Assembly: GCA_964547875.1 (NCBI GenBank)
Contig: CAZJPE010000004.1
Location: 30,598 to 93,472 of the forward strand
Source: Candidatus Woesearchaeota archaeon
GTDB taxonomy: Archaea; Nanobdellota; Nanobdellia; Pacearchaeales; GW2011-AR1
Reading direction: 5' to 3'
Length of the DNA: 62,875 bases
The translations under genes and the position numbers were made by a program. The notes below the pieces were generated by a model. That model saw only the letters and a program-made list of their open reading frames with translations. It had not been told where the DNA came from and did no database searches. Position 1 is the first letter of the stretch; every line of letters starts with the position of its first letter. Shown here piece after piece: positions 2,785 through 53,061 of the stretch.

Positions 2785-3009
2785 ACCCGTCATAATTTCG
2801 ATACATAGGTCTTCTATTTTTGTAAAGCCATGATTTAGCATAATGTATAGGCAAATCCAATTTTTTTGAATTTTGTAGGATAAAAGATAAATAGCCTCTA
2901 TCTATAAAAATGCAGATTTTTGTTTTATATAATGTTTTAGAATTTTTATTTCATTAATTCATCTTAACTTTATAAAAAGGATTAAAAAGATAGTCTTTCT
3001 TTTAGAGAT

Positions 3010-4281
3010 ATGGCAGAGCTTAACTTTCATCCTGGAGATAGAGTTAGATTAAGATTGGCTCTTGAGGAGTTAGATGGGGTTGTTTTAGAGAGCTCTGATG
3101 CAGGCGTTTTACTTTTGAAATTGGATTCTGGCTATAATATTGGAATTCCCAAAGAAAATATTTTAGCTGGGAGAGTTTTAAAGAGGTTTAATGAAGAGAA
3201 AGGGAAATTTCCCTTGCCTGAACAAAAGAAGGATTTGAAAAGTATAGGACTAATAATTACTGGAGGGACGATTGCCTCCAAATTAGATCCTAAAACTGGG
3301 GGAGTAAAACATTTGACTGGAATTGAGGAATTTGCCAGATTTTATCCTGAATTGTTTGAGGTTGTGAATGTTAAGAAGATTGAGATGCCTTTTATGATAG
3401 CCTCTGAATCGATGACTAGCGAGCACTGGAGCAAAATTGCCAAAAGCGTTGAGAAGATCTTGGAGGATTCAGATATTAGCGGAGTGATTGTGACTCATGG
3501 CACTGACTTTTTGGGGTATACTGCTGCTGCCTTATCTTTCTTTTTGCGTAATTTGGGCAAGCCAGTTGTACTCACATACTCGCAGAAAAGTATTGATAGG
3601 GCTTCTAGCGACGCTAGTCTTAATTTAGAGTGTGCTGCGAGAATGGCTATTTCAGACGCTGCAGGAGTATTTGTAGTCGGGCATGCTTCAATTAATGACG
3701 ATTTCTGCTATGCCCTGCTTGGAGCGAAAACGAGAAAGATGCACAGTTCAAGAAGAGACGCTTTTAAGGTTGTTAATTCAGAGCCAATTGCTAAGGTTTG
3801 GAAAGATAAAGTTGAATTTCTTAGCGCTTATAAAAAAAGAGACGAAGAAAAGAGGATTGAGCTCGATGTTAATTTTAATGATAAAGTTGCACTTATTAAA
3901 TTTTATCCAGGGCAGGATGCAAGCATTTTGGATTTTTATGCTTTAAAACATAAAGGGATTGTTATTGAGGCTGCTGGATTAGGACATCTTCCTGTGACAG
4001 AGGCTTCTCATAATTGGATTCCTAGATTGAAAAAGCATATTAAAAACGGATTTATTGTTTGCGCCGCCGCCCAGACAATTTATGGAAGATTGGACCCTCT
4101 TGTTTATTCTAATGGTAGGGAATTAGTTGATGCTGGCGTTATATTTTTAGACGATATGCTGGCTGAAACTGCGTTGGTAAAATTGGGCTGGGTTTTGGGG
4201 CATCGTGGTTGGATTACTAGGGTCAAGGAAAAAATGCTTGAGAATTTTAGCGGAGAGATTGGCGAGAGATTAACCGTTTGA
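3010..4281 (+). CDS. gatD: Glu-tRNA(Gln) amidotransferase subunit D
   Basis: N-terminal KLDSGYNIG domain, asparaginase motifs TGGTIAS and HGTD, SQKSIDRASSD. Confidence 0.95.
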   Translation: MAELNFHPGDRVRLRLALEELDGVVLESSDAGVLLLKLDSGYNIGIPKENILAGRVLKRFNEEKGKFPLPEQKKDLKSIGLIITGGTIASKLDPKTGGVKHLTGIEEFARFYPELFEVVNVKKIEMPFMIASESMTSEHWSKIAKSVEKILEDSDISGVIVTHGTDFLGYTAAALSFFLRNLGKPVVLTYSQKSIDRASSDASLNLECAARMAISDAAGVFVVGHASINDDFCYALLGAKTRKMHSSRRDAFKVVNSEPIAKVWKDKVEFLSAYKKRDEEKRIELDVNFNDKVALIKFYPGQDASILDFYALKHKGIVIEAAGLGHLPVTEASHNWIPRLKKHIKNGFIVCAAAQTIYGRLDPLVYSNGRELVDAGVIFLDDMLAETALVKLGWVLGHRGWITRVKEKMLENFSGEIGERLTV

Positions 4282-4291
4282 TTGGAGAGAA

Positions 4292-4723
4292 ATGAGAATA
4301 AGAAATGCTACAATTGATGACAAGGATTTTATTAAGGAATTAGATAAAGAAAATATGTCTTCAATTATAGAGTTTCATGGTGAAAAATATAAAAGTTATA
4401 TGTTTGATTCTTTTAAGCCAAAAAATTGTTTTATAATAGAAGATGACAAACTAATAGGATTTGTTTATTTTGGCATCATGGGAAATAAATTAGATATATG
4501 GAGCATTCAAATAAAAAAAAGTTTGTGGGGAAAGGGTTTTGGAAAGAAACTTATGAAATATATTCTTGATTTTGCTGTTAAAAAGAAATTAAAAAAAGTT
4601 GTTCTTGAGGTTAATAAAAATAATAATAAAGCCATAAGATTTTATGAAAGATTAGGATTTGAAAAAATTAATTCTAAAAAAATTAATAAAATAGCATTTG
4701 AATATATTATAAAAATAAATTAG
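4292..4723 (+). CDS. GNAT acetyltransferase
   Basis: WGKGFGKKLM acetyl-CoA loop; NNKAIRFYERLGF. Confidence 0.9.
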   Translation: MRIRNATIDDKDFIKELDKENMSSIIEFHGEKYKSYMFDSFKPKNCFIIEDDKLIGFVYFGIMGNKLDIWSIQIKKSLWGKGFGKKLMKYILDFAVKKKLKKVVLEVNKNNNKAIRFYERLGFEKINSKKINKIAFEYIIKIN

Positions 4724-4824
4724 ATATTATTCATAAGGCACGATAGTCAAATAAGATAATTTTGTTATAACTATAAAAGAGTTAAAATAGAAAGATTTAA
4801 ATAGATATTTTGAGTCTATTTTTT

Positions 4825-5544
4825 ATGCACAAAAGAAAAAACAAAGATGGATTGTATGAAGTTGTAAAAAGATACTTTGAGCCCAGCGCGGGGCAGATTC
4901 CGGTTTTGCTAGTGGATACAGGAACATTAATAGATTTTGAAGAGCGTGCTAAAGAAGAAAAATCCAGAGAAGCCCCCCATAGAATTGCCGGAAAACTTTT
5001 TAATGATATTGGCAGTTTAGCTAGCTATGTGGTGTTTCCCAGGGGCATTTATGACGAGATAGTGGAGCATCATTGTAAAAGCAAGAAGAATGGCAAGTCT
5101 GAAATAGGGGAAGAGACATGTAATCTTGTAAGGGATTATAGCGCGAATTCTGAGAAAATCTTAGAAGCTACCCGCTTTGATTATCATTATAGCGAGCCCT
5201 ATAAGAATGAGGTAGATAAGCTTCAAGAATTAGTTGAGCATCTGCATAGAGAGGTTAATGGCGACATAAGGGGCGGAAAAAAGATTGATAGAGACCCTAT
5301 TTCTCAGAACGATTTGGAATTGCTTAATACTGCAATTAGATTTGCTGTCAAATCCTTATTTGAATTTCGCCTTCGTCAAGAAGAGAGCGGAGATGTGGCT
5401 TCTGATATAGAAGGGACTTATAGAATTGCAGTAGTATCTCCTGACTCACATATTTACAGACCTTTAAATGCGCTTATTACAAGAGCGGAGGGTGTTTCTT
5501 ATAGGGATTATCTCCAAGCATTTAATCCAAGAGAATATAATTAA
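4825..5544 (+). CDS. PIN-domain ribonuclease (large, Nob1-like motif spacing)
   Basis: Acidic tetrad in PIN order: LLVDTG, IYDEI, ISQNDLELL, VVSPDSHI; TATA-like TTTAAATA about 25 nt upstream. Confidence 0.7.
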   Translation: MHKRKNKDGLYEVVKRYFEPSAGQIPVLLVDTGTLIDFEERAKEEKSREAPHRIAGKLFNDIGSLASYVVFPRGIYDEIVEHHCKSKKNGKSEIGEETCNLVRDYSANSEKILEATRFDYHYSEPYKNEVDKLQELVEHLHREVNGDIRGGKKIDRDPISQNDLELLNTAIRFAVKSLFEFRLRQEESGDVASDIEGTYRIAVVSPDSHIYRPLNALITRAEGVSYRDYLQAFNPREYN

Positions 5545-6408
5545 ATGGTTCAGGAAATGACGAGTAATGTGGAAAAGAATTTTAAGTTTATGCATGTTCG
5601 AGAGTATGGCGGGGCAGAACGCTCCCATGGAGGCCTTTTTGTATACGAGAAAATTGATGGAGGGAATTGTTCTGTGAGGAAGGAGGATGGCATTCTAGTT
5701 CCTTATAGCAGATCCAGAAGATTGACTTCTCAAGATTTGGGATCTTTTTATTTTCTAAATCTTTTTAATTGGGTTCATTCAGTTCCAGCTCTTCAGCATT
5801 TACCTGAAGATAAAATATTATGCGGGGAATGGACTCATTACGGTTTTGGACATATTTGCTACAATCCTGAATATATGGAGAGATTTTTTCTTTTGGGTGT
5901 TTATGATAAAAATGAGGGAAGATATTTGCATCCAGATAAATCTAGTGAACTTGTAAATAGTTTGGATATGGAGAGTAATGTTGTTAGACTGCCTATTCTG
6001 CGTAGTGGCAATATTAACAATGAGATAGCTGACGAATTGGTACAGAGCAAGAGCGACTTTTATGATGGTCTAAAAGAGGGCATTGTTATCCATAAATATC
6101 ACGATACTTTTAAGAATGGTTTACGTATGGAGAAGTACTTTAGCCCTGAATTTCGTGAAATAGATTATGGCGGAAAGGGGATTGATAAGTACATTACAAA
6201 GAGAAGGCTAATCAAAGCAGCTCAAAATTTACGTACGCATGGAAAACGCCTTAATTTTGGAAATGTTGTTGGTGCAGCTGCCAACGATATATTAAGGGAT
6301 ATTAAGGATTATAAGAGAGAGGAACTAATTGCGGCATTTCAGACGCCTGAAATTGAGTCTTTATTCAATGAGAAGATTTTTCCTCTTTTTCAAATAAATA
6401 GAGGATAA
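5545..6408 (+). CDS. ATP-dependent RNA ligase (Rnl2-like nucleotidyltransferase)
   Basis: Motif I EKIDGGN, III CGEW, IIIa FFLLGVYD, IV EGIVI, V EKYFSPEFRE; helical C-terminal domain; no recognisable OB domain. Confidence 0.85.
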   Translation: MVQEMTSNVEKNFKFMHVREYGGAERSHGGLFVYEKIDGGNCSVRKEDGILVPYSRSRRLTSQDLGSFYFLNLFNWVHSVPALQHLPEDKILCGEWTHYGFGHICYNPEYMERFFLLGVYDKNEGRYLHPDKSSELVNSLDMESNVVRLPILRSGNINNEIADELVQSKSDFYDGLKEGIVIHKYHDTFKNGLRMEKYFSPEFREIDYGGKGIDKYITKRRLIKAAQNLRTHGKRLNFGNVVGAAANDILRDIKDYKREELIAAFQTPEIESLFNEKIFPLFQINRG

Positions 6409-6438
6409 TTTTAATAACTACCTTTTTGTTTATTTTTC

Positions 6439-7890
6439 ATGGATTATTTGAAATTAGGATTAAAGGCAGGCTTAGAGATTCATCAGCAGTTAGATGTCGG
6501 CAGAAAGTTGTTTTGTAGATGCCCTGCTTTTTTAAGAAGCGAAGAGCCTGATTTTTTTGTTAGGAGGAAATTGCATGCTGTTCCTGGAGAGAGCGGCGAG
6601 GTTGATATGGCTGTTGAATATGAGGCAGGACTCGGAAAGGAATTTGTTTATCAGGGATATAATGATAATAATTGTTTGGTCGAACTTGATGAATCGCCTC
6701 CTTATGAGGTAAATGAAGGAGCTTTAGACGAAGCTTTGAAGATTGCATTGCTTTTGAATTGCGAGATTTATCCTATAACGCAGATAATGAGAAAGACAGT
6801 TATTGATGGCTCAAATACAAGCGGATTTCAGAGAACGATCTTAATTGCTCATGATGGTTTTGTTGAGACCTCGTTTGGGAAAATTGGCATTGCGACAATT
6901 ATGCTTGAGGAGGATTCTGCGAGGATTCTAGAGAAGAGCGGAAATAGCGCTATTTACAGATTGGACAGATTAGGGATTCCTCTTGTTGAGATAGGGACTA
7001 TGCCTGATTTGAGAACTCCAGAGCAGATTAAGGAAACGGCATTGAAGTTAGGGGAGATTCTTCGGGCTTGCAGGGTTAAAAGAGGTATTGGAACTATAAG
7101 GCAAGATTTGAATATTTCTGTCAAAGGACATAATAGGGTTGAAATTAAGGGCTTTCAAGAGCCGAGGATTATGCTTAAGACTATTGAGCTTGAAGTTGAA
7201 AGGCAATTGGGAGAGTTGAAAAATAATAATAAGGAAGGAGGTGTTAGAAATGTTTTGGATGATGGAAAGACTGAATTTTTAAGGCCCATTCCAGGGGGAG
7301 CGAGGATGTATCCTGAAACTGATTTGCCTCTGCTGAAAATTGGCAGAGAGAGAATTAATAGGATTAAGAAGGAATTGCCGAGATTGAAGCAAGATATAAG
7401 AGATGAATTAAGGAAGAAAGGGCTAAGCGAAGAGCTAATTAATTTAGTTTTGGCCGATAAGGAGAGTTTTGATGAGTTTAATGTTTTAATAAGCGTTTAT
7501 GATAAGGACGCTAATTTAGCTGCTAAGATGATAACTTTATGGAGACAGGAATTTGCTTCTAAGAGTGGGAAGGATTTTGATGAAATTAAAGATATTTTAA
7601 ATGAAAGGGTTTTGGAGCAGGTATTAGAGCATGTTCGCGATGGAAAATTAGATAAGGGGCATGTTAAAGAGGTTTTATGGAATATTTTACAAGGGAAAAA
7701 GATTGAAGAGGCATTGCATGTTGAAAAGGTTGAAAATAACGAATTAGAGGAGAGGATTAGGAAGATTGTCAAGGAAAAGCCCGGGCTTAGAGAAAACGCT
7801 TATATGGGCTTAGTGCTCAAGGAATTTGGGAATAAGGTTGATAAGAGAAAGGCGATGGAACTTATTAAGAGGATTTTGCGGAGCAAATAA
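6439..7890 (+). CDS. gatE: Glu-tRNA(Gln) amidotransferase subunit E, lacking the AspRS-like (GAD) insertion
   Basis: GLEIHQQL, DGSNTSGFQRT, RGIGTIRQD, ARMYPETD; only 483 aa. Confidence 0.95.
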   Translation: MDYLKLGLKAGLEIHQQLDVGRKLFCRCPAFLRSEEPDFFVRRKLHAVPGESGEVDMAVEYEAGLGKEFVYQGYNDNNCLVELDESPPYEVNEGALDEALKIALLLNCEIYPITQIMRKTVIDGSNTSGFQRTILIAHDGFVETSFGKIGIATIMLEEDSARILEKSGNSAIYRLDRLGIPLVEIGTMPDLRTPEQIKETALKLGEILRACRVKRGIGTIRQDLNISVKGHNRVEIKGFQEPRIMLKTIELEVERQLGELKNNNKEGGVRNVLDDGKTEFLRPIPGGARMYPETDLPLLKIGRERINRIKKELPRLKQDIRDELRKKGLSEELINLVLADKESFDEFNVLISVYDKDANLAAKMITLWRQEFASKSGKDFDEIKDILNERVLEQVLEHVRDGKLDKGHVKEVLWNILQGKKIEEALHVEKVENNELEERIRKIVKEKPGLRENAYMGLVLKEFGNKVDKRKAMELIKRILRSK

Positions 7891-7900
7891 TAATATTAAA

Positions 7901-8305
7901 TTATTCAAATTCCAATAATTCTATTATGTCTTTTGTTGTTATTATTTTTGTTATATCTTGATTTTTTAATGATTTATCGTTTGTCCATAATGGAATTTTT
8001 AATTTCATTGCTAGTGCCATGTATTCTATGTCCTTTTCGTCTTTTATAATATCTTTGCATTTTTGCATTTGTTCTTTATATTCTTTTAAATCAATAAAAT
8101 TTATTCTTGTATTTAGTATATCTATAAAAGAATTAAAATCTTTTAGATTTGCTTTTTTTAGTATGTCTTCTTTATATTTCATTATTTCTTTCTTCGCAAA
8201 TTCTGGTGAAAATAAACTTAATGGAAAGTTAGCAATTAAATATCTTGTTTTTGATAAAGGGTTCGCTATTGAGAATAGAATATTTGCGTTTATTACTAAC
8301 TCCAT
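7901..8305 (-). CDS. VapC/PIN toxin with first catalytic Asp replaced by Asn
   Basis: LVINANIL, DEKDIEYMALA, LWTNDK. Confidence 0.85.
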   Translation of the reverse strand: MELVINANILFSIANPLSKTRYLIANFPLSLFSPEFAKKEIMKYKEDILKKANLKDFNSFIDILNTRINFIDLKEYKEQMQKCKDIIKDEKDIEYMALAMKLKIPLWTNDKSLKNQDITKIITTKDIIELLEFE

Positions 8306-8551
8306 TTAAACTATTATACCCTTATTTTTTAGTTCTTTTAATCTTTCTGCTTTCATTTTTCTTCCCATTTCAACTGTCCAGTTAGTGAATTCTTCTTCTT
8401 TTTTTAATTGCTTGAGCATTTCCTCTTTCCAAGATAATTCTTGTACTTTTTTCTCGATTATTTTTCTAACTAAAGCAGACCAATTTATCTCATCATATTG
8501 CTTCATTTTTTTTCTTATTTCTTCTGGAATAGATAATGTTATGCTTACCAT
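8306..8551 (-). CDS. Ribbon-helix-helix antitoxin
   Basis: MVSITLSIPEE...INWSALVR; directly upstream of the PIN gene. Confidence 0.85.
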   Translation of the reverse strand: MVSITLSIPEEIRKKMKQYDEINWSALVRKIIEKKVQELSWKEEMLKQLKKEEEFTNWTVEMGRKMKAERLKELKNKGIIV

Positions 8552-12687: not shown

Positions 12688-12906
12688 ATGATAGAAATTA
12701 AAACAAGGTTGAGGAGATGGGGCAATTCTTTCGGAGTAGTTGTGCCTCAAAGAGCAATAGAAAATGAAGATGTAAGAGAAGGAGATGAGATAACAATATT
12801 ATTTAAAAAAGAAAAACCTAATTTAAGAAAATTATTTGGTGCACATAAATTCTCCAAGCCAGTAGAGCAATTAATGAAAGAGATGGACGAAGAGCTTTAT
12901 GACTGA
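12688..12906 (+). CDS. AbrB/MazE-type antitoxin
   Basis: LRRWGNSFGVVVP. Confidence 0.9.
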   Translation: MIEIKTRLRRWGNSFGVVVPQRAIENEDVREGDEITILFKKEKPNLRKLFGAHKFSKPVEQLMKEMDEELYD

Positions 12907-13267
12907 AAGATTTTTATATGACACATATGCCTTAATTGAGATATTAAATAATAATAAAAATTACGAGAAATATGTTGATAAAGACATAATAATCAATGAT
13001 TTTATTTTTGCAGAGTTCTGCTATCAGCTAATAAAAGATAATGAAAAAAATTCTGAAGAATATCTGGATGAGGTAGAGCCCGCTATAATTAAGCTAACAG
13101 CAAAGATAATAAAAAAAGCAATGAAATTTAGATATGAACATAAAAAGAAGAAATTATCTATGACAGATTGCATTTCTTATTTTCAGGCTAAGGAATTAGG
13201 AATAAAATTTCTTACAGGCGACAAGGAATTTCAATCTTTAGATAATGTAGAATTTGTTAAAAAATGA
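12899..13267 (+). CDS. vapC: VapC/PIN toxin
   Basis: YDTYALIE, LSMTDC, FLTGDKEF; overlaps the antitoxin gene. Confidence 0.9.
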   Translation: MTERFLYDTYALIEILNNNKNYEKYVDKDIIINDFIFAEFCYQLIKDNEKNSEEYLDEVEPAIIKLTAKIIKKAMKFRYEHKKKKLSMTDCISYFQAKELGIKFLTGDKEFQSLDNVEFVKK

Positions 13268-13301
13268 ATAGATTTATTAACTAATATTTTTTTTCTGTGG
13301 G

Positions 13302-13541
13302 ATGATAAGTGAAAAAGAAAAGGATAGTATTAGAAAAGAAGCAAAGCAAATTTTGGATAATTTTGCTTCTGCACTTGAGGGAGTTAAAGTAAAAAAGAGA
13401 GGATTTAAAAAGCGTGTAGGGGGATATAGAAAAGAAAGAGACGGACAGAAGTGTGATGAAGATTTTCGCAATAGAATGTTTGATAATGCACCTTCAAAAG
13501 ATGGAGATTGTATAATTGCAGAGAAGAAAAAATGGCAATGA
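13302..13541 (+). CDS. gatC: GatC-like amidotransferase subunit C
   Basis: 79 aa, ILDNF...R...FDNAP.KDGDCIIAEK; near gatA and aspS. Confidence 0.7.
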   Translation: MISEKEKDSIRKEAKQILDNFASALEGVKVKKRGFKKRVGGYRKERDGQKCDEDFRNRMFDNAPSKDGDCIIAEKKKWQ

Positions 13542-13930
13542 AGAAAATTAAAAAGAATGCTAAAATTGAAGAGGAATTAATGAAGGATGTTAATGTTGCT
13601 GAAGAGGAGATTAAGAGATTAGGGAGCGTAATCAGTAGAGATGGCGGAGAAGAGATAAAGAGAATTAACGTCAAAGGCTCTAAGCCAATATCTCAATTGA
13701 AAAAAGGGGATAAAGTCAAGGTTGATGGCATTAATTATGAAGTTGATGCGCATTATGTCTTGATTGACCATGGTAAAACGAAAGAAATGACAATAGAGAT
13801 TTTTAATCCAAAAACAGACAAAGACTATCAGTTAAGATATTTTTCTGATCAAATTGAAACAAGCCTGGAATTTTATGAATTGCAGGAGATTGTTTACGTT
13901 AGAAGGCATTTGGAGAGAGTCGAGTGGTGA
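13538..13930 (+). CDS. Hypothetical protein (beta-rich)
   Basis: ATGA overlap with gatC; about 130 aa. Confidence 0.6.
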   Translation: MKKIKKNAKIEEELMKDVNVAEEEIKRLGSVISRDGGEEIKRINVKGSKPISQLKKGDKVKVDGINYEVDAHYVLIDHGKTKEMTIEIFNPKTDKDYQLRYFSDQIETSLEFYELQEIVYVRRHLERVEW

Positions 13931-13938
13931 ATGTTATT

Positions 13939-14328
13939 CTATATTTCTAAAATTTTTACATTTTTTAATTCTCTAAAATCATTATCTAATGTAATAAATA
14001 ATGAATTATTTATTAAAGAACTGACATATATTAAAGAATCTATTGCAGGTATATTTTTATTTATTGATAATTCAGCTGCTTTTTCTGCTATTTCTTCATT
14101 TAAAGATAATTGTATTGTTTTTTCTTTAATAAACTTTAATTTTTCATTTATTATAATTTCAGGTATTTTTTTCTCCAGCATTTTCTTCTTTATTTCAAAA
14201 ATAGATAAAATTGATATAAAAAATATTTTTTCGCTTTCTATTAAATCTTGAAAATTTCCCTCAAATAAATAAGCCAAGATAACTGAAGAATCAAGCGTTT
14301 CAGAATCTATCTGATCTTCTTCTTTCAT
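13939..14328 (-). CDS. vapC: VapC/PIN toxin
   Basis: LDSSVILAY, SIFEI, AIDSLI, TLDNDF. Confidence 0.88.
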   Translation of the reverse strand: MKEEDQIDSETLDSSVILAYLFEGNFQDLIESEKIFFISILSIFEIKKKMLEKKIPEIIINEKLKFIKEKTIQLSLNEEIAEKAAELSINKNIPAIDSLIYVSSLINNSLFITLDNDFRELKNVKILEI

Positions 14329-14527
14329 TTTGCAATTCTTTTAATATATCTTTAAGAGTCTCTCCTTTTTTATAATATTTCTTTAATGAGCCAGCCATAG
14401 ACTTTGTTTTTGTCTTTTTAATTGCGAGTTTTATTATTGCTTCATCATATGATTTAGCCATTAATTCATCTTTTAGCTTTTTCAATAAAAGCAAAGTCTT
14501 ATCTTCTACTTGTATCGTTGTTGTCAT
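14300..14527 (-). CDS. VapB-type antitoxin
   Basis: MTTTIQV...SYDEAI; overlaps the PIN gene. Confidence 0.8.
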   Translation of the reverse strand: MTTTIQVEDKTLLLLKKLKDELMAKSYDEAIIKLAIKKTKTKSMAGSLKKYYKKGETLKDILKELQNERRRSDRF

Positions 14528-26696: not shown

Positions 26697-29600
26697 TTAT
26701 ATTTTTTGTATGTAGCCTTTTTTTGGTTTGAATATGTCTCCTACTTTTGATAATTGCTCTAATGCTTCTTCTAATTCTGCTTTTGAGATTTTATCTATTA
26801 AAAGCTTTTCTAATTCTTCTATTGGAATAAGCTTGCCTAGACGCGATTCCAGCTGTAGGATTGTTTCTTTAACAGCAAGGATTTTCCCACGCTTTGAAGA
26901 GGTTATGCCTGTTGTTATTCTGTCGATGTCAAACGTCTTGGTTTCCTCGTCATAGCCTACTTGCGAGAGCGAAGTTTTTAATAGTTCTATTGCTTTTTTT
27001 GCATCTTTAGGCGTTACTTCTTTTCTAAGATGGATTTTTGCGTGTGCCTCTGCCAGTCTCACTATTCCTTCTAATTGACGAGCAGTTATAGGAATTGGCT
27101 TTATATCAGATTCGGTTTTAACAGACTGATTTCTAAGCCTAACATAAAAGTTTTTTATTTCTTCGATTGCTTCATCTGTCAGTTTTGGCTTTACTTTTTG
27201 TTTTGCGTAGGCAATATACTTTCTAAATAGTTTTTGTTCTATTATGTTTCTGATAACCTCTTGTTTGTGCTCTTCGAGAACATGAGTGGCTATTGCTTCA
27301 TCTATTGATTTGTTAGGGATATCTCGGATTATGAATATAACATCAAACCTGCTCAATAAAGCCGGAGAGATATCAATTTGCTGGGGAATCGGTGTGTAGG
27401 GGTCGAATCTTCCGAGCTTTGGGTTGCCTGCCGCGAGAACAGTTGTTTCTGCTCTTAGAGAAGCCTGGATGTTTGCCTTGGAGATTGTAACAGAATTATG
27501 AAGCACCATGTTATTTGATATGAAGCTATGCGTTGGTTTGATGGTAATATCATAAACCCATTTATCATTATTTGCTATTGTTTCAACTGACTTTATCTTT
27601 GACCATCTAATTTTCCCAAAGGCCAGTTTTTTTAATTCCCTTAATTCTGTCAAAATAGCCAGCATGTTTTCTATTTCTAAATAAATAATTTCTTTGTATT
27701 TTTTGTTTTGAACTCCTTTTTTTTCATGTTGTGACAGCACATAATCTGTGATTTTTAGTTTATTTGAGATATTAAGCACGGATAATTCCAGATATTCTCT
27801 AATTTGACCTAATACTTTAGAGTTGTCTGAATTTTTTATTTTTTCTTTCGCTTGCAATAACCTATCAATTTTTTCTTCAGCTATGTTTATCATTTTTTGT
27901 AAAAATACTCTATGCTTATTACAATTCAAACAAATTTGATTTTTAAGATATTTTTGTTGATTTATTTTTAATGTTTTGAATATCTCCCTTATTTTATTTG
28001 TTACATTTGGGACTATATCAGAAATTGAGCGATATGTTTTTTGTTTTTTAAGGTATTCCTCAAGTCTTTTTTGTTTCTTTTTTGAAAGAAAACCTATATT
28101 TTGATAAAACTTTAAAATGTTTGCCTGTCCCGAAATATCCACCCTATAGAACTCTTTATCAATATATATTGAAGATAGAATACCAAATCTTAATAATAAT
28201 TCAGTTACCTGCTCTGCTAATCTGGCATTTTCAGATATTAGGCCTATTCTGCATCCGTTTCTTTTTACATTTACAACCGTTCCGTCACCATCAAACAACG
28301 CTCTTAATAAAAATGTTAAATCTTCATTTTTGCATTTCATGATTTCTCCAGGAATTGCTTTCAATGTGCCTTTTTCCATTAGATTCCCGTCTAGAGACTT
28401 CATAAAATCTGCAATATCTTTTGAGATTACCCTTACTGCATATTTATCATTGCTATATGTAATTAGAGGTTTTTTGTTAAAAATAGAGTCTATAGCATTG
28501 GCGTAATCTTCAATTAAATCTTTATTTTTATTTGAGAATTGAATACCATTCTTTTTCCCCCTATTTAATTCGTAGCATCCATCACTTATATGATAACCAA
28601 GTAATTTGCATAATTGTGGACCATTTTCCCATGGTTTTTTATTGAAAGTCTGCTTCTCTCCTTCTATTGGTAGTTCCCCTGGTATAGGAAAAAATTCATT
28701 TATTCTTAGCATTGCCGCAGGAATAGTGGTAATTCTTCCTTCTTTTATTGCCCAACAGGGATGCTCTGGCGTTACTATTATGCTTCTTCCATTATTAAGA
28801 GTTATTTTAACAAGATTTTTAGGTGCAAGATGCCTACTTATTTTGTTTATTTTAACTGGATAAATTGATTCGAAATCAGTTGTCAGAATTTTTATATCCT
28901 GATTCAATGGCAAGATTTCACAATTTATTCCCTGCTGCGTTCTTTCTTTGTTTTTTTCCATTATAGAGTCCACAAACTTTCCTACTTTTTCTTTTGAGCC
29001 GTCTGTAAAGGTTAGTTCCAAATCTTTATGATAACATTGCTGCTCCATTGCTTCGTGCATTGTGCTCCTATCATGCTCATTCATTTTTTCTATTTCGTCT
29101 ATCGCAACTAATCCTTTGTTTGAAAGCACCATTGCTCCTGCTTCTAAGGACCATCCCCTTAAGAATTCGTCTTTCACTACTGCCGCTGTCATGCCTGCTG
29201 CTGTCGCTGCTTTTCCTGATACATAACGCCCCTTTGGAGCTATGCTTGCGATAAATTTTAGCATTACGGATTTTGCGACGCCAGGATCGCCCACTAATAA
29301 AATATGTATATCTCCTCTTGTAGAGCCGCCATCTGATTTTGTTTTTTTAACTCCGCCGAATAATTGCAATAGTATTGCCTCTTTTATCTGAACAAATCCG
29401 TAGATGCTTGGCGCAATGCTTTGCGCCAATCGCTTGAATATATTTGGATCAGCGGCCAGTTCCAAAATTTCTTTTATATCTTCGTCTCTAATTTTAAGAT
29501 TCTCAAATGATTCTTCTAACGCTATTGTATTATTTACTTCCAATGCTATGTCAAAACGGGTTGAGATTCCTGCGGGCAAAGGAACAGGAACTTCTTTTAA

Positions 29601-30251
29601 TATTCCATTAATTCTTACTCTGCTTCCGGGGGTGATCCATTCCTCCATTTTCGGATCAACTAAGTCTTCTTTTAGAAACGAGTTTATTCTTCTTGGTTGT
29701 TCTCCGCCTTCTAATGTATCAGGAGATTCTTCAATAACAATGCGCTGTACATCAACCATTTCTTTTGAGAGTATTTTAAAATTGCCTTTCCAATTGCAGG
29801 AGCATCTTGAGGGCTCTCTGAATTTTCTGTCAACTTGCAAGACTGAAAGAATTGCGCCGCAGCTCGGACATTCAAAGCGAGCATTCACAACTTGGGGCCT
29901 AACTTCTGATGCCTGCTTGACTATACCCTCTACGCTTAATAGCTGATCAAGATGTTTTGCTCTAATATCTCGGATTTTTATGTTTAGTGTCTGTGGGACT
30001 TCTAATAATCTTATTCGCGGATTTTTTATGAATTCTGATTCTTCCAAGGCATTTTCTAATAATGCGAGCGTTTCCTCTGGTTTGTCTATTATGTTATCAG
30101 CAAGTCTTGGCGAGAATTTTGATAATTTTGGAAATGGCAACTGAATTACCCGCTCGCCTTTTCTTGCAGATTCAATTATTTCCTCTTTTCTCGCATTGAA
30201 AAAACTTTTTGCTTCCAGGGACAATTCTTCATATTCTCTCTTTTTTTCCAT
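26697..30251 (-). CDS. mcm: MCM replicative helicase precursor containing one intein
   Basis: Zn finger, GDPGVAKS, IDEIEKM, SRFD, ITARQLE. Confidence 0.97.
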   Translation of the reverse strand: MEKKREYEELSLEAKSFFNARKEEIIESARKGERVIQLPFPKLSKFSPRLADNIIDKPEETLALLENALEESEFIKNPRIRLLEVPQTLNIKIRDIRAKHLDQLLSVEGIVKQASEVRPQVVNARFECPSCGAILSVLQVDRKFREPSRCSCNWKGNFKILSKEMVDVQRIVIEESPDTLEGGEQPRRINSFLKEDLVDPKMEEWITPGSRVRINGILKEVPVPLPAGISTRFDIALEVNNTIALEESFENLKIRDEDIKEILELAADPNIFKRLAQSIAPSIYGFVQIKEAILLQLFGGVKKTKSDGGSTRGDIHILLVGDPGVAKSVMLKFIASIAPKGRYVSGKAATAAGMTAAVVKDEFLRGWSLEAGAMVLSNKGLVAIDEIEKMNEHDRSTMHEAMEQQCYHKDLELTFTDGSKEKVGKFVDSIMEKNKERTQQGINCEILPLNQDIKILTTDFESIYPVKINKISRHLAPKNLVKITLNNGRSIIVTPEHPCWAIKEGRITTIPAAMLRINEFFPIPGELPIEGEKQTFNKKPWENGPQLCKLLGYHISDGCYELNRGKKNGIQFSNKNKDLIEDYANAIDSIFNKKPLITYSNDKYAVRVISKDIADFMKSLDGNLMEKGTLKAIPGEIMKCKNEDLTFLLRALFDGDGTVVNVKRNGCRIGLISENARLAEQVTELLLRFGILSSIYIDKEFYRVDISGQANILKFYQNIGFLSKKKQKRLEEYLKKQKTYRSISDIVPNVTNKIREIFKTLKINQQKYLKNQICLNCNKHRVFLQKMINIAEEKIDRLLQAKEKIKNSDNSKVLGQIREYLELSVLNISNKLKITDYVLSQHEKKGVQNKKYKEIIYLEIENMLAILTELRELKKLAFGKIRWSKIKSVETIANNDKWVYDITIKPTHSFISNNMVLHNSVTISKANIQASLRAETTVLAAGNPKLGRFDPYTPIPQQIDISPALLSRFDVIFIIRDIPNKSIDEAIATHVLEEHKQEVIRNIIEQKLFRKYIAYAKQKVKPKLTDEAIEEIKNFYVRLRNQSVKTESDIKPIPITARQLEGIVRLAEAHAKIHLRKEVTPKDAKKAIELLKTSLSQVGYDEETKTFDIDRITTGITSSKRGKILAVKETILQLESRLGKLIPIEELEKLLIDKISKAELEEALEQLSKVGDIFKPKKGYIQKI
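27495..29036 (-). mobile_element. 514-aa intein with LAGLIDADG homing endonuclease
   Basis: AMEQQ|CYHKD...TPEHP...LLGYHISDG...LRALFDGDG...WVYDITI...VLHN|SVTISKA. Confidence 0.95.
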
Positions 30252-35113: not shown

Positions 35114-35371
35114 ATGGGGATCACAAAGATAACGAGAAATTATCAAATAACCTTACCTAAGGATATAAGAAAGATGATTAGTCTAAAAGAAGGAGATGAG
35201 ATAATGTTTATTGTAGAGGATGATAAAGTAAGCCTTACAAAAGTAGAAAACGATGTAATACGAAGGACTGCAGGTATTTGGGGAGACATAGGTGAAACAG
35301 GAGCAGAATATCAAAAGAGAATTAGAAAGGGGTGGAGCAGAAGATTGAGAAAGCAACATGCAACTCATTGA
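35114..35371 (+). CDS. AbrB-type antitoxin
   Basis: TKITRNYQITLPKDIR...LKEGD. Confidence 0.9.
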   Translation: MGITKITRNYQITLPKDIRKMISLKEGDEIMFIVEDDKVSLTKVENDVIRRTAGIWGDIGETGAEYQKRIRKGWSRRLRKQHATH

Positions 35372-35732
35372 TACAAATATTTTTATTGATCATTTTAGAG
35401 GCTACAAGCCCGCAACAATTTTCCTTGAATCATTAGATAAAGATGATATAATTTTTTCTGCCATAACTGAAGCAGAAATTATCGCAGGAAAACAATGTTC
35501 AGAAGAAAAGAAAAAAAGAGAGATATTGGAATTTCTTATGAGATGGCAGAAGAAAGAGGTCAATAATCAGATTGCGATTAAGGCAGGAGATTTAACTCGT
35601 GAATATGGCATGGAGCTTGCAGATGCTTTTGTCGCAGCCACAGCTATTCTTTATGATACTGAACTTTTAACAAGAAATGTTAAAGACTTTAGCAATATTC
35701 CTAATTTGATAGTTAGAGATCCTTTTCAATAA
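35358..35732 (+). CDS. vapC: VapC/PIN toxin
   Basis: IDTNIFID, SAITEAE, LADAFVAATA, LLTRNVKDF. Confidence 0.92.
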   Translation: MQLIDTNIFIDHFRGYKPATIFLESLDKDDIIFSAITEAEIIAGKQCSEEKKKREILEFLMRWQKKEVNNQIAIKAGDLTREYGMELADAFVAATAILYDTELLTRNVKDFSNIPNLIVRDPFQ

Positions 35733-49822: not shown

Positions 49823-50710
49823 TTAGGCAGTCGTGATAATTTTTTCTTTTTCTGTCAGCAAAACTGTGTGCTCGGCTTGCGCGACTTTTTTTCCTGATTT
49901 TTCTATTAATTGAGGGTAGTGATGCAATAGATTTGAGGATTCTATCTGCCTTAATGCGAGCAAACCACGTGTGCCAAATTTTTTGTAAATCCATCTTGCA
50001 CAGAATGGAAGAGTTTTATATTCTTCTTTAATAAACTGCAAAACAGAGCGGGCGAAATTATCTCTTATGTTTCCTTCTTTTTGCAGGTGATATATTCCTG
50101 ACGGCTTGCCTTCTTTCACAGAGCCGACTCCTAATGTCGTGAATGGCTCTATTGCATATAGCCCTTGCGAGATTTTTATTTCTTGGGCATTGTCAAAGTT
50201 TGGAATAGTAATGCCTGCATGAAGATTATAATTTGATATTGAATGCCCAGAGAGATTTATTATCGGCTGAACATTATTTTTTTTGCATGTTTTTTCAATT
50301 ATAGAGCCTATGTCTCTTAATTTTACGCCCAGATTTATTTTTTCAAGCGCATTGTCTCTTGCTTCTTCTGCTGTTTTTATCAGGTTTTTATTTTCTTCTG
50401 AATTTTCCAAGTCAAGAGAGAAGGCGGTATCTGCTATATGCCCATTGATATGAATTCCTATGTCTATTTTTAATAAGCTATGGGCTTTTGTTTCGTCATT
50501 ATAAGTAGGGGTTGAATGCGCTGCGACTTCGTTTATTGATAGATTTACAGGAAAAGCGGGCTTTGCATTTAACTCGAGAATTTTATTATCTATTTTATTC
50601 GCAATTTCTAATAAAGGCGTGTCTTTCTTAATTATGGATTTTGCGTATTCTATTACTTCTTTGGCAATTTTTCCTGCCTTGAGCAAATTTTCAATTTCTT
50701 CTTGATTCAT
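49823..50710 (-). CDS. map: Methionine aminopeptidase type II
   Basis: AAH, KIDIGIHING.IADTA, NLSGH, AIEPF, AQAEHT. Confidence 0.95.
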   Translation of the reverse strand: MNQEEIENLLKAGKIAKEVIEYAKSIIKKDTPLLEIANKIDNKILELNAKPAFPVNLSINEVAAHSTPTYNDETKAHSLLKIDIGIHINGHIADTAFSLDLENSEENKNLIKTAEEARDNALEKINLGVKLRDIGSIIEKTCKKNNVQPIINLSGHSISNYNLHAGITIPNFDNAQEIKISQGLYAIEPFTTLGVGSVKEGKPSGIYHLQKEGNIRDNFARSVLQFIKEEYKTLPFCARWIYKKFGTRGLLALRQIESSNLLHHYPQLIEKSGKKVAQAEHTVLLTEKEKIITTA

Positions 50711-51515
50711 TTTTGCGATGTTTTACAATTTTTGGTTTGTATGATATTATAAATATGGTTATTATAAGGATAATTATCAAAAGTGCTAGATTAAATAGTA
50801 TTTGATAATTATTTTTAATTCTCTGTGTTTTGCCTGATGAGATATTTTGCTTTTCTTCATAAGATATATTTCTCCCGCTTAGAGGCGTTGTTTCATTTAT
50901 TTTATCTTCTGGTATTTTAGGAGGCTCTGTTCCTGATGCTTTTTCTGAGGAGCTCCCTGACGAGCCTGTGCCTTGTGATTGACATTGGCCGCAATCTGTT
51001 GGACAATTGCTGCAGGATTCTTCTATGTTGCAGATCGCATTTCCGCAGGAAGGCGCAGAGTTATTTATAATGAAATTTACTTCTGAAAAATTTATTCTAT
51101 TGGCGCTGTCGTTTGCGTATATTTTTAGAGCATAATTTCCTTCTGGAAGACTAATATAAAAAGGGGCAAAAATTGTGACATTTTCTTGATCGTTTATAGA
51201 GTACCATATTGAATCGAGAGCGATATCGAGAATTGTGTAATTGACTAAGAGAGGCGTTACATTATTATATACTGTGTTCTTTGGATTTATTATATTAACA
51301 ATAGGTGATTCGCCATCAATAACAATTCTTATATCGCTTTGCTCGGATGGGCTAAGAGATTGCTGTGCTTGGGAAAATGGTATCAAGAAAAAAATAAGCG
51401 ACAATAGGATGTAGAGAACTGCGTACAAAAATGTGCTATAATTTACGCAGTTCTCTAATGGATAACTGCTGATACGTGAGCTATAAACAATGTAGTTATC
51501 CATAATGTTATTCAT
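50691..51515 (-). CDS. Secreted, C-terminally anchored protein (Ig-like domain, Cys-rich module, S/G linker, TM); putative filament base
   Basis: Signal, LSPSEQSDIRIVIDG, Ig-like domain, CGNAICNIEESCSNCPTDCGQC, TM with basic tail; start uncertain. Confidence 0.7.
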   Translation of the reverse strand: MNNIMDNYIVYSSRISSYPLENCVNYSTFLYAVLYILLSLIFFLIPFSQAQQSLSPSEQSDIRIVIDGESPIVNIINPKNTVYNNVTPLLVNYTILDIALDSIWYSINDQENVTIFAPFYISLPEGNYALKIYANDSANRINFSEVNFIINNSAPSCGNAICNIEESCSNCPTDCGQCQSQGTGSSGSSSEKASGTEPPKIPEDKINETTPLSGRNISYEEKQNISSGKTQRIKNNYQILFNLALLIIILIITIFIISYKPKIVKHRKNESRRN

Positions 51516-51539
51516 GATAAAGAATAATTTTTCTATTAT

Positions 51540-52118
51540 TTAAACTTGCTTTCTTCTTTTTATCAGTTTAGCAGAAATTATTATACTGAGTATTATTATG
51601 ATAATTATAATTATTGCAGATATCGTACTTATGTTTGTTTTTTTTAGGTTCGCTGGCTGTTCCGTCGTATTAATTAGAACCGCTGTTTTTTCTCCAACTA
51701 TGATTGGGAGTTCTCTTATATGTTGCAAGCGGAGCTGTATGTTTCCTTCTTTTTCTTCTGGACTAGGCGTTACAGCAAATTTTATGCTGTAAGAATCGCC
51801 TATTTTTGCATTTTGCGGAATAGACACTTTTATTATTATTTTATTATCATTTGAGCCAGGAGGAACTATGAACTCTTCTTCGCTGATGATTTCTGCTATC
51901 CCTGCACTTTCAATTAAAGAGACAATGGCTCTTGCAGGAGATTTTTCTTCAATGCTATTTTTGAGAGTAAATGATACTTCTTTTGTCTCGCCAGGATACA
52001 TTTTTAATGGATTGTCTTCCCAATATGGAGAATCTACGCCAAGAGCTAGAACAGAGCCTATGCTAATTACGAGAGTTAATATCAGAGTTGCGAATTTTAG
52101 CTTATTGTCATTATCCAT
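51540..52118 (-). CDS. Secreted Ig-like protein with C-terminal TM (paralog of 53062-53655)
   Basis: GVDSPYWEDNPLKMYPGETKEVSFTLKN. Confidence 0.75.
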   Translation of the reverse strand: MDNDNKLKFATLILTLVISIGSVLALGVDSPYWEDNPLKMYPGETKEVSFTLKNSIEEKSPARAIVSLIESAGIAEIISEEEFIVPPGSNDNKIIIKVSIPQNAKIGDSYSIKFAVTPSPEEKEGNIQLRLQHIRELPIIVGEKTAVLINTTEQPANLKKTNISTISAIIIIIIIILSIIISAKLIKRRKQV

Positions 52119-52990: not shown

Positions 52991-53010
52991 GCTAAGAAAA
53001 GCAGACCTTT

Positions 53011-53040
53011 CTTTAAAAAGATTTCTTTTATGTTAAGTAT
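53011..53040 (-). promoter_or_regulatory. TATA box plus one copy of the ATACTTAAYAT motif upstream of the putative major subunit
   Basis: TTTTAAAG (minus strand, 53018-53011); ATGTTAAGTAT at 53030-53040. Confidence 0.5.
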
Positions 53041-53061
53041 GTGTAGGTTCATGATATTTTT

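Follow-up and report, generated by a model that had tools for sequence, protein, structure and literature searches.

Two genes that lie back to back between gatD and gatE on a Candidatus Woesearchaeota contig appear to encode a PIN-like metallonuclease and an ATP-dependent RNA ligase, which raises the question of whether the two enzymes cut and rejoin the same RNA and, if so, in what biological setting. We analyzed the pair within a window of 62,875 nucleotides (the whole stretch of DNA under study) and compared it with loci in related genomes.

Gene arrangement and genomic setting

The nuclease-type gene, of an unnamed family, is an open reading frame at 4825..5544 on the + strand (ATG 4825, TAA 5542-5544; 239 aa), and the ligase gene occupies 5545..6408 on the same strand (ATG 5545, stop codon 6406-6408; 287 aa). 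The initial annotation had the stop codon of the first directly abutting the start codon of the second, and the coordinates bear this out exactly, with 0 nt between TAA and ATG. An alignment of homologues favors ATG 4825 over the upstream TTG 4810 as the start of the PIN-like protein. The single TATA-box-like element that had been noted upstream, TTTAAATA at 4796..4803 (+ strand; spotted by eye), lies 22 nt before ATG 4825, inside a 100-nt AT-rich gap (GC 0.27) that follows a GNAT gene; judged from its sequence and position, it likely serves as promoter for a PIN-ligase transcript that is leaderless or nearly so. No open reading frame of at least 50 aa lies between the GNAT gene and the PIN-like gene, and the ligase gene is the only one tightly linked to the latter. 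On the other side, the ligase stop codon is overlapped by a promoter-like gatE motif, GATAATTTTAATAACT at 6404..6419 (+ strand), which forms the right boundary of the two-gene cassette. By eye, this motif or a near-identical one is found upstream of gatE in congeners whichever gene precedes it; because it is kept whatever lies upstream, transcription of gatE would be independent of the cassette.

Enzymes related to tRNA are encoded nearby (gatD, gatE, ProRS, AspRS and TGT), and the initial annotation had taken a location among tRNA genes as a hint of tRNA substrates. The hint finds no support, as the window contains only two tRNA genes, ~39 kb from the pair. The ligase gene is the sole PF09414 gene of the genome. 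RNase P RNA and RtcB are both present in the genome, and the pair therefore substitutes for neither. The reported lack of RNA-repair genes in the vicinity agrees with our results: RtcB is encoded on a different contig, and neither Pnkp nor Hen1 appears among the matches in a Pfam scan of the window. Equally, the PIN-like gene has no small antitoxin gene, unlike the four other PIN genes in the window, each of which has a small upstream open reading frame in a VapBC-like arrangement (PIN gene/small open reading frame at 7904-8305/8309-8551, 12899-13264/12688-12903, 13942-14328/14303-14527 and 35358-35729/35114-35368).

A predicted PIN-like nuclease and an RNA ligase without a clean family fit

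The 239-aa protein belongs to a rare family, with 55 representative clusters among 1.84 billion proteins, that sequence models barely recognize. It matches no Pfam family above cut-off (PIN_12 scores 16.5 bits at E 0.012, its cut-off being 32) and no NCBIfam model at E up to 1, and a search of PHROGs gave nothing above noise. Across 51 family members, weak Pfam matches are to PIN_12 in 11 (best E 4e-4), to PIN_4 in 2 and to PIN_5, PIN_6, PIN_3 and NYN in one each, the PIN_5 match having E 0.067; the member in genome G254 scores 24.6 bits on PIN_4, for which the cut-off is 21.9. Matches to an ETV6 fusion and to MCM, obtained with phmmer and in a profile search against the PDB, were discarded as spurious.

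We therefore turned to a structural model, since Pfam cannot decide the assignment. The AF2 model built from a 51-sequence alignment (pLDDT 92, pTM 0.89) was used instead of one built from 5 sequences only (pLDDT 65). It has an alpha/beta/alpha fold with a central parallel sheet, like that of the PIN domain-like superfamily, and the sheet of its PIN core is four-stranded. Foldseek with this model found nothing in the PDB at E ≤0.001, so VIA-align was required to reveal the fold. All matches from rank 1 to rank 42 are PIN or PIN-like nuclease domains by description, a uniform list although its Z values are middling. The best is 1o4w_A (Z 8.5, 114 residues aligned, rmsd 3.2). A second VIA-align comparison returned six chains at Z of at least 8, and in it the HARP chains 8ssg_F (Z 8.3, 147 aligned) and 7og5_A (Z 8.3, 142 aligned) effectively share the top with VapC11 (Z 8.4, 134 aligned). 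Residues D31, E78, S160 and D163 are invariant in the 51-sequence family alignment, and D157, D207, K152 and K153 are conserved in at least 90% of sequences, giving an S-x-x-D ... S-x-D-x-H pattern. The model together with these acidic residues supports membership in the PIN fold, on which the initial annotation had staked its proposal, and the acidic tetrad that it described as intact is indeed so (D31, E78 and D163 invariant, D207 nearly so). In the predicted active site, D31, E78, D163 and D207 would hold catalytic metal ions, with D157, S160 and K152/K153 nearby.

In the model, the PIN core is also interrupted, ahead of D157/D163, by a hairpin of two helices (96-122 and 124-146, together residues 96-146). 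The position of this hairpin fits the account of HARP architecture given for Hhal2243/Aq880 (PMC8266387), namely a four-stranded PIN core with a two-helix hairpin just before a D-x-D motif, the comparison being with the published description. By analogy with the spike-helix domain of HARP, the hairpin and K152-K153 might bind RNA or mediate oligomerization. HARP (homologue of Aquifex RNase P; PF08745 PIN_5, TIGR03875 'RNA ligase partner') forms homo-oligomers, from dimer to dodecamer, and cleaves the 5' end of pre-tRNA. It is itself linked to an RNA ligase, Rnl3 (Pab1020 type, TIGR01209), as was pointed out by Matelska et al. 2017 (PMC5499597) and examined by Seshadri and Gopalan 2025 (PMC12153264), a precedent that the initial annotation did not take into account. 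These likenesses bear on a rival explanation that we regard as possible but on balance unlikely: that the pair serves RNA maturation and is what HARP-Rnl3 would be in DPANN archaea. Its nuclease would trim one specific stable RNA (a C/D-box sRNA, the precursor of a tRNA or rRNA, or an intron-like element), which its ligase would circularize or rejoin in normal biogenesis. Besides the parallel in architecture, this explanation draws on the HARPs, which rank near the top of the structural matches and align with the model over the greatest lengths (142-153 residues), and on the linkage of HARP to an RNA ligase in ~700 genomes, for which 5' trimming of sRNAs followed by circularization has been proposed (PMC12153264). 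The protein is nevertheless no HARP by sequence, as neither PF08745 nor TIGR03875 matched anything across the genome at E ≤1e-3, with control genomes positive.

The assignment of the second protein is firmer. It matches PF09414 with E 1.6e-11 and 45.1 bits (cut-off 27), the only Pfam family above cut-off, and 'RNA ligase' phrog_548 with E 4e-17 over residues 16-275. A nucleotidyltransferase domain spans approximately residues 25-200, with K36 as the adenylylation lysine, and is followed by a C-terminal extension of ~85 aa. In an alignment of 15 diverse homologues, K36-x-D38-G39, E95, F114, E178-G179 and K197 vary little or not at all; fully invariant are E35, K36, G39, E95, E178, G179 and K197, and D38, N41 and R56 are conserved in at least 90%. 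These positions, which we take to be motifs I, III, IIIa, IV and V, had been called present in the initial annotation, and the PF09414 match and the intact lysine of KxDG agree with it.

Its description of the ligase as Rnl2-like stands in part. In placing a C-terminal extension after the nucleotidyltransferase domain, the protein resembles Rnl2, although T4 Rnl2 itself is matched weakly by the ligase profile (E 1.3e-5). The nucleotidyltransferase domain is closest to Rnl5: the nearest solved sequence is Naegleria NgrRnl (E 6.7e-12), and the resemblance to Rnl2 seems to be one of architecture only. With both families, defined as nick-sealing ligases in the family definitions of PMC11040149, the protein shares the PF09414 nucleotidyltransferase domain and all conserved catalytic positions. 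It differs from Rnl5 in lacking the N-terminal OB-like domain (the alignment begins at NgrRnl residue 160) and having a C-terminal extension instead, and Rnl3 structures are matched through the nucleotidyltransferase domain only (2e-7 to 6e-6). By sequence, the ligase thus appears to fit none of Rnl1-6 cleanly. The Rnl3 model TIGR01209 had no match in the genome (controls positive), and the ligase has neither the N-terminal nor the dimerization domain of Rnl3, the known RNA-circularizing ligase, which speaks against the RNA maturation explanation. PF18043 matches the C-terminal extension weakly (E 0.11, 13 bits, cut-off 27); language-model neighbors of the ligase are phage clusters, with PF18043 present in 12-23% of their members, which we treat as a lead only. 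A protein atlas names the Pfam families PF26507 and PF26425, the second of which had no match in our Pfam scan at E up to 1.

Both proteins also bear on a DNA-directed function, in which the PIN-like protein would attack DNA or RNA-DNA hybrids as a FEN/ExoIX-type 5' nuclease and leave a nick for the ligase to seal. FEN, ExoIX and T4 RNase H belong to the PIN-like superfamily and are matched at Z 5-6.4, and a related ligase in G434 also scores on the DNA ligase model PF01068. The top structural matches are, however, RNA-acting PINs (VapC, Nob1, HARP, Nmd4 and SMG6), at higher Z; the ligase of the window is above cut-off for PF09414 only, with PF01068 absent at E up to 1; and its nearest solved relatives are RNA ligases. 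We consider DNA nick or flap processing very improbable and infer that the substrate is RNA.

Linkage of the two genes and cassette-like replacement

The initial annotation would have had to be abandoned if homologues of the two genes were not linked in other genomes, and the linkage is strict. In all 12 assessable loci of the PIN-like family a ligase gene is adjacent; in 11 it follows immediately on the same strand, and in one it is convergent. The start of the ligase relative to the PIN stop in the 11 co-directional loci is 0, -4, -4, +1, -8, -4, -14, -14, -4, +16 and +18 nt, so that nine junctions fall within -14 to +1 nt. Both genes were found in the same 4 of 61 related genomes. Weak family matches in G413, G253, G073 and G388, none of them with a ligase within 1.5 kb, were left out of the family. 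In a phylum sample of 401 genomes, 9 of the 13 stand-alone PF09414 ligases examined lie beside a PIN-type gene of one of several subfamilies, including PIN_3 and PIN_4-like (one of the nine, in G285, was recognized by eye only), and 4 have no PIN gene within 1.5 kb. Fused PIN-ligase proteins were not seen among longer proteins, which is weak evidence.

Dense DPANN genomes, in which overlaps of unrelated genes are common, could in principle hold two independent neighbors together by operon hitch-hiking. This we find barely credible here, as the genes stay adjacent in at least 12 family loci and several more distant pairs even where genomic context, orientation, PIN subfamily or ligase subtype has changed, and the divergence of the two proteins co-varies (pairwise identities, Pearson 0.89, Spearman 0.59; pairs not independent).

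The pair is an accessory, mobile and fast-evolving cassette rather than part of a housekeeping pathway. It is carried by 3 of the 10 genomes of the genus and, counting strong matches, by 5 of the 401 in the phylum sample. Alignment-based searches of contig collections returned close relatives only, with three loci in genome contigs, two in metagenome contigs and none in viral contigs; PADLOC matched neither protein. In the five congeners without the pair for which the gatE locus was retrieved (G002, G003, G004, G006 and G007), the slot just upstream of gatE holds a Fic gene, a Fic remnant with a DUF6036-type nucleotidyltransferase gene, or genes for unknown proteins of 266-327 aa; one genome has a LAGLIDADG-type gene in the slot and a duplicated 5' remnant of gatE. 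Relative to G621, G580 and G599, the PIN-like protein is 19-25% and the ligase 24-27% identical, against 67-71% for GatE and 57-58% for GatD, which makes the pair three times more diverged than its flanks. In the ligase tree, the type found in the window clusters with genomes from two taxonomic families other than its own (support 100/99) and stands apart from G026, G621, G580 and G599 of its own family, three of which have the pair in front of gatE. Patchy presence, replacement by unrelated cargo at the same site, and this divergence and phylogenetic incongruence all count against RNA maturation, and no candidate substrate RNA gene accompanies the pair.

The surroundings, for their part, are in keeping with RNA maturation: at 7 loci gatE follows the pair directly, elsewhere the pair adjoins translation genes, and neighbors are in the main housekeeping genes related to translation (gatD/gatE, S10/EF-1A, aIF5B/PUA). 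We rejected gatD/gatE as an obligatory context, because 5 of the 12 family loci (G026, G365, G437, G426 and G254) are not directly before gatE; in four of them the regions fetched contain no gatD or gatE, and in G365 gatDE is ~4.4 kb away on the other strand. The GNAT gene was likewise dismissed as a third component: neither G001 nor L049 has it, and the GNAT beside the G437 pair shares only 25% identity with it. A tyrosine recombinase gene, which may be housekeeping XerA, adjoins the pair in G365 and G426.

Possible role and relation to known systems

Metal-dependent PIN nucleases give 5'-phosphate and 3'-hydroxyl ends, which need no healing enzyme before an ATP-dependent ligase can join them. 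The PIN-like nuclease of the window would leave such ends, and the ligase would adenylylate itself on K36, pass the AMP to the 5'-phosphate and seal the break; with direct sealing of this kind, no kinase or phosphatase would be required. The two genes may form a co-translated module that cuts and rejoins RNA, most likely as a conflict system with reversible cleavage, a reading to which we give slightly less than even credence. Its role might be that of a toxin with an enzymatic antidote or of a defense module with built-in repair. Of the three roles offered initially (toxin with repair as antidote, antiviral module, and RNA processing or circularization unit), the data single out none; the accessory, fast-evolving and cassette-like behavior leans towards the conflict or toxin-antidote readings, which we judge more likely than a housekeeping one.

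Several observations weigh against a conflict role. The neighborhood of translation genes fits RNA maturation equally well, and in the small genomes of such archaea most genes are housekeeping anyway. The fast divergence of the pair could reflect relaxed constraint rather than conflict, and the PADLOC result and the absence from viral contigs also count against it. HARP-Rnl3, the nearest known analogue, is just as patchy in its distribution, and knockout of the Rnl3 ligase in Thermococcus caused no growth defect (PMC12153264), which argues against a toxin-antidote relation in HARP-Rnl3.

The pair is best read, by analogy, as a DPANN counterpart of the published HARP-Rnl3 linkage. Each pairs an ATP-dependent RNA ligase with a PIN-type nuclease of ~200-240 aa that carries a two-helix insertion (as predicted by the model for the protein described here); both are patchily distributed, in organisms that may also have an RNA-based RNase P. 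Apart from the ligase type, they differ in that the genes described here are nearly always co-directional and translationally coupled, whereas those for HARP and Rnl3 are typically 'bidirectionally' oriented and co-located in only part of the genomes (PMC12153264), and in that the hosts here are mesophile-type DPANN MAGs as opposed to the extremophile lineages of PMC12153264. What HARP does where an RNA-based RNase P exists, and why it travels with a ligase, are open questions (PMC12153264, PMC10941002), and our literature search found no paper describing the DPANN pair. Another archaeal phylum shows the same nuclease-ligase logic built from unrelated family members, and its recurrence as a tight, swappable cassette provides independent support for a real functional partnership while shifting the odds towards a conflict-type role. 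A broader proposal, which we hold to be doubtful, is that PIN and RNA ligase pairs, HARP-Rnl3 included, form one widespread class of reversible RNA cleavage, in which the nuclease would be the toxin or defense effector and the antidote would repair its product enzymatically instead of binding the toxin. The parts would be modular (PIN subfamilies, ligase subtypes, either orientation) and swapped as cassettes at fixed slots of DPANN archaeal genomes. If so, such pairs would represent a new type of toxin-antidote logic, and being small and simple they are open to direct tests of toxicity, end chemistry and resealing.

Comparison with VapBC modules shows a PIN-fold nuclease with conserved acidic residues and an accessory, patchy distribution on both sides. 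The nuclease here is ~100 aa longer because of its helical hairpin, and in place of a small antitoxin its partner is a 287-aa enzyme encoded downstream. With RNA repair cassettes (Pnkp-Hen1 with a ligase domain, RtcA/RtcB, T4 Pnk and Rnl1) the pair shares a ligase in an accessory operon thought to reverse RNA breakage; those cassettes carry end-healing enzymes and mend the damage done by foreign nucleases, whereas the operon described here encodes its own nuclease and has no healing enzyme.

A predicted PIN-fold nuclease and its neighboring RNA ligase

The source genome (0.95 Mb in 13 contigs, 92.7% complete) encodes both an archaeal RNase P RNA and RtcB. ORF listing and Pfam searches of the window place gatD at 3010-4281 and a GNAT acetyltransferase gene at 4292-4723, followed on the same forward strand by an AT-rich gap of 100 nt, a 239-aa ORF for a PIN-like protein (4825-5544), a 287-aa RNA ligase ORF (5545-6408), a 30-nt gap and gatE (6439-7890). 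As described in the initial annotation, the TAA of the PIN-like ORF (5542-5544) abuts the ATG of the ligase ORF, and a single TATA-like element lies upstream, namely a TTTAAATA box identified by eye 22 nt before ATG 4825. Alignment with homologs favors this ATG over a TTG at 4810 as the PIN-like start. Neighborhood comparison ruled out the GNAT gene as part of the module.

The PIN-like protein matches only PIN_12 in Pfam, under the cut-off (E = 0.012), and NCBIfam, PADLOC and PHROGs gave no useful match. A word-based search of 5.8 billion proteins returned four relatives at 62–66% identity, and a profile run exhaustively over 1.84 billion cluster representatives defined a family of 55 proteins (E ≤ 0.001), nearly all of 190–260 aa. 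In a 51-sequence alignment, D31, E78, S160 and D163 are invariant, and I36, D37, E39, H82, E93, K152, K153, D157, S205, D207 and H209 reach at least 90% conservation. The AlphaFold2 model built from this alignment (pLDDT 92, pTM 0.89) contains four strands and places the conserved acidic residues where strands end and helices begin; a pair of long antiparallel helices (96–122 and 124–146) is inserted ahead of D157/D163. Foldseek found nothing significant for this model among known structures. VIA-align against 48,161 representative chains returned a list almost purely of PIN-domain proteins (Z of 8.5 for AF0591, 8.0 for Nob1, 8.0 for VapC11, 7.6 for Nmd4 and 7.3 for Aquifex HARP, the homologue of Aquifex RNase P), in agreement with the proposed PIN fold. 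In a second VIA-align comparison, several HARP structures ranked alongside VapC11 at the head of the list, and the longest aligned stretches were those with HARPs (8ssg_F, Z 8.3 with 147 residues aligned; 7og5_A, Z 8.3 with 142; 8kd9_E, Z 7.9 with 144).

PMC8266387 describes the HARP architecture as a PIN core, built on a sheet of four strands, into which a two-helix 'spike-helix' domain is inserted; the catalytic residues are D7, D138, D142 and D161. Our model has the same layout, but the HARP sequence models PF08745 and TIGR03875 do not match the protein; nor did they match anywhere in the source genome, though control genomes gave matches. PIN_5 touched one of the 51 family members (E = 0.067). 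Because the layout is shared and the HARP sequence models are unmatched, we regard the upstream protein as a predicted PIN-fold nuclease of an unnamed family that is HARP-like in look, and we stop short of classing it as a HARP.

The downstream ORF matches PF09414 (E = 1.6e-11), is the only such gene in the source genome and is spanned by phrog_548 ('RNA ligase') over residues 16–275. Across 15 diverse homologs, E35, K36, G39, E95, E178, G179 and K197 never vary, and D38, N41 and R56 seldom do; the motif numbering (I, III, IIIa, IV and V) is the conventional one. A profile of the 15 homologs matches the nucleotidyltransferase domains of Naegleria Rnl5 (6.7e-12), archaeal Rnl3 (2e-7 to 6e-6) and T4 Rnl2 (1.3e-5). 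Measured against the RNA ligase families as the PMC11040149 introduction defines them, the window ligase has neither the N-terminal domain of Rnl5 nor the dimerization and N-terminal domains of Rnl3, and like Rnl2 it has a C-terminal extension; a model search of the source genome found no TIGR01209 match. This extension reaches PF18043 only at E = 0.11, and the nearest phage 'RNA ligase' genes are 25–27% identical over 82–88% of the ligase length. The initial label 'Rnl2-like' is therefore apt for the architecture alone.

Linkage of the two genes across genomes

The PIN-like gene and the ligase occur in the same four of 61 related genomes (G000, G001, G009 and G026) and are adjacent in each. 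Run against 401 genomes sampled from the phylum, the PIN-like profile had five strong matches (G000, G365, G437, G254 and G426), all with an adjoining ligase, which is convergent in G254. Four weak matches were not counted as family members: G413, G253 and G073 lack a ligase within 1.5 kb, and G388 yielded no ORF match. Three further genomes (G621, G580 and G599) came from a class-level sample of 401 genomes; in each the ligase follows directly downstream of the PIN-like gene, as it also does on one metagenome contig. The linkage thus recurs in other genomes, with a ligase in 12 of 12 assessable family loci and on the same strand in 11; a thirteenth locus, L050, was too short and was left out of this count. 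Spacing from PIN stop to ligase start is 0, -4, -4, +1, -8, -4, -14, -14, -4, +16 and +18 nt in 11 co-directional pairs, a set that includes the more distant G070 pair.

PF09414 matches are found in 168 of the 401 phylum-sample genomes, mostly in frames of about 550–650 aa that we took to be DNA ligases; in four shorter frames that we checked, PF01068 scores higher. Our census from the ligase side covered the best 13 stand-alone genes with PF09414 as the top family, leaving out lower-scoring short matches and 13 returned loci with long frames. A PIN-type gene adjoins nine of these 13 best-scoring ligases: the PIN-like family itself at four loci, a PIN_4-like gene in G254, a divergently oriented PIN_3 gene in G434, and genes recognized by hhalign (probability 87%) in G070, by profile (E = 2.5e-6) in G334 and by eye only in G285. 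The other four (G305, G375, G214 and G390) have no PIN-type gene within 1.5 kb. Nuclease and ligase pairwise identities co-vary (Pearson 0.89, Spearman 0.59, over 13 pairs of non-independent data), and no fused PIN–ligase protein was found, itself weak evidence.

Two of the stand-alone ligases have other settings. The 351-aa PF09414 RNA ligase of G390 lies directly upstream of a gene for a TROVE-domain (Ro60-like) protein (L062:1420-3536), another kind of ligase partnership within this phylum. G375 carries tandem ligase-like ORFs with no PIN gene nearby (L063:1396-2730), a 204-aa PF09414 ORF followed by a 218-aa ORF with a KLDG motif seen by eye.

An accessory cassette in a variable slot before gatE

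The pair is an accessory cassette. It is present in three of the ten genomes of the genus, and carriers (GatE identity to the window of 76% in G001 and 74% in G009) interleave with non-carriers (80% in G002, 76% in G007, 75% in G003, 73% in G004 and 68% in G006) when ranked by GatE. In these five non-carriers a different same-strand gene stops immediately ahead of gatE, at positions of about 2950-4450 in each locus: a 307-aa Fic-domain protein in G006 (L030), a Fic remnant with a DUF6036-type nucleotidyltransferase in G002 (L024), and proteins of 266–327 aa without an assigned family in G003 (L027), G004 (L028) and G007 (L026). A conserved GATAATTTTAATAACT motif, identified by eye at 6404-6419 of the window, overlaps the ligase stop codon; it lies about 20–35 nt upstream of gatE whatever gene precedes (window, L027, L028, L030 and L049), and the cargo gene before gatE ends in a stop codon that overlaps the motif. 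The motif is probably the BRE/TATA promoter of gatE, and it marks the right edge of the variable slot.

A DUF1003 membrane protein is often encoded further upstream, on the opposite strand, in non-carrier gatE loci. In G009, a 390-aa ORF with LAGLIDADG-like motifs seen by eye (L012:1972-3323, contig 70) lies between ligase and gatE, beside a duplicated gatE 5′ end of 48 aa that is 71% identical over residues 1–46; the ORF resembles an insertion of the homing-endonuclease type at the start of gatE.

The pair also precedes gatE in other genera of the window's taxonomic family (G621, G580 and G599), with identities to the window of 19–25% for the nuclease, 24–27% for the ligase, 67–71% for GatE and 57–58% for GatD. 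In the ligase tree, the window type clusters (support 100/99) with the pairs of G365 and G437, which belong to two other taxonomic families, and stands apart from the same-family G026, G621, G580 and G599, three of which have the pair before gatE. However the tree is rooted, this taxonomic family, f1, therefore does not come out as one group. The nuclease tree points the same way, though its support is lower and its branches are long. Elsewhere the pair neighbors adk (G026), a tyrosine recombinase (G365 and G426), S10 and EF-1A (G437), or aIF5B and PUA genes (G254). The recombinase, of about 280 aa with Phage_integrase and SAM-like N-terminal domains, abuts the pair on different sides in the two unrelated genomes (L040:8550-9383 and L042:2155-2997) and could be either a housekeeping XerA or a sign of mobility.

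Possible roles of the pair

Metal-dependent PIN nucleases, including RNase P-type enzymes, hydrolyze phosphodiesters to leave 5′-phosphate and 3′-hydroxyl ends, and ATP-dependent ligases of the superfamily to which the window ligase belongs join such ends through a lysyl-AMP intermediate. In the simplest model, the PIN-like enzyme would nick a structured RNA and the ligase would then reseal it or circularize the product; coupling of their translation would keep the two enzymes in step. We tentatively favor a reversible toxin or defense module, because patchiness, cargo replacement in one slot, fast divergence, tree incongruence and mixing of PIN and ligase subtypes are traits of conflict systems. 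Several observations speak against such a module: PADLOC and viral contigs gave no match, the neighbors of the pair are mostly translation-related, and loss of Rnl3 in Thermococcus is reported to be harmless (PMC12153264). The pair could instead serve RNA maturation or circularization, as proposed for HARP-Rnl3, the published linkage of HARP with an Rnl3 RNA ligase; given the conflict-system traits, we consider this less likely and place it behind the toxin or defense module.

The co-occurrence of HARP with a ligase is noted in a 2017 paper (PMC5499597) and analyzed in a 2025 one (PMC12153264). Our literature search found no paper on the DPANN PIN-like family or its ligase; the 2016 RNA-repair survey of Burroughs and Aravind, outside that search, might bear on them. 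The finding matters because the window pair independently supports an unexplained nuclease–ligase partnership and gives it a testable direction.

Consistent with the initial annotation, the window holds four other PIN genes, all preceded by a small ORF, so the PIN-like nuclease stands out in having an enzyme as its fixed partner. Small toxin–antitoxin-like pairs cluster at 12688-14527: PIN genes are paired with ORFs of 72 aa and, on the other strand, 75 aa, and a 79-aa ORF is paired with one of 132 aa that has no Pfam match. Two more PIN pairs occupy 7904-8551 and 35114-35729, the latter with a MazE/AbrB-type partner. On the reverse strand, a 1476-aa ORF (53655-58082), for which Pfam gives only a sub-threshold sigma-70 region 4 match at the C-terminus, is followed by several ORFs without a Pfam match (50694-53655). 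An intein carrying a LAGLIDADG domain (Pfam families Intein_splicing and LAGLIDADG_3) interrupts the 1184-aa MCM helicase gene (26700-30251, reverse strand).
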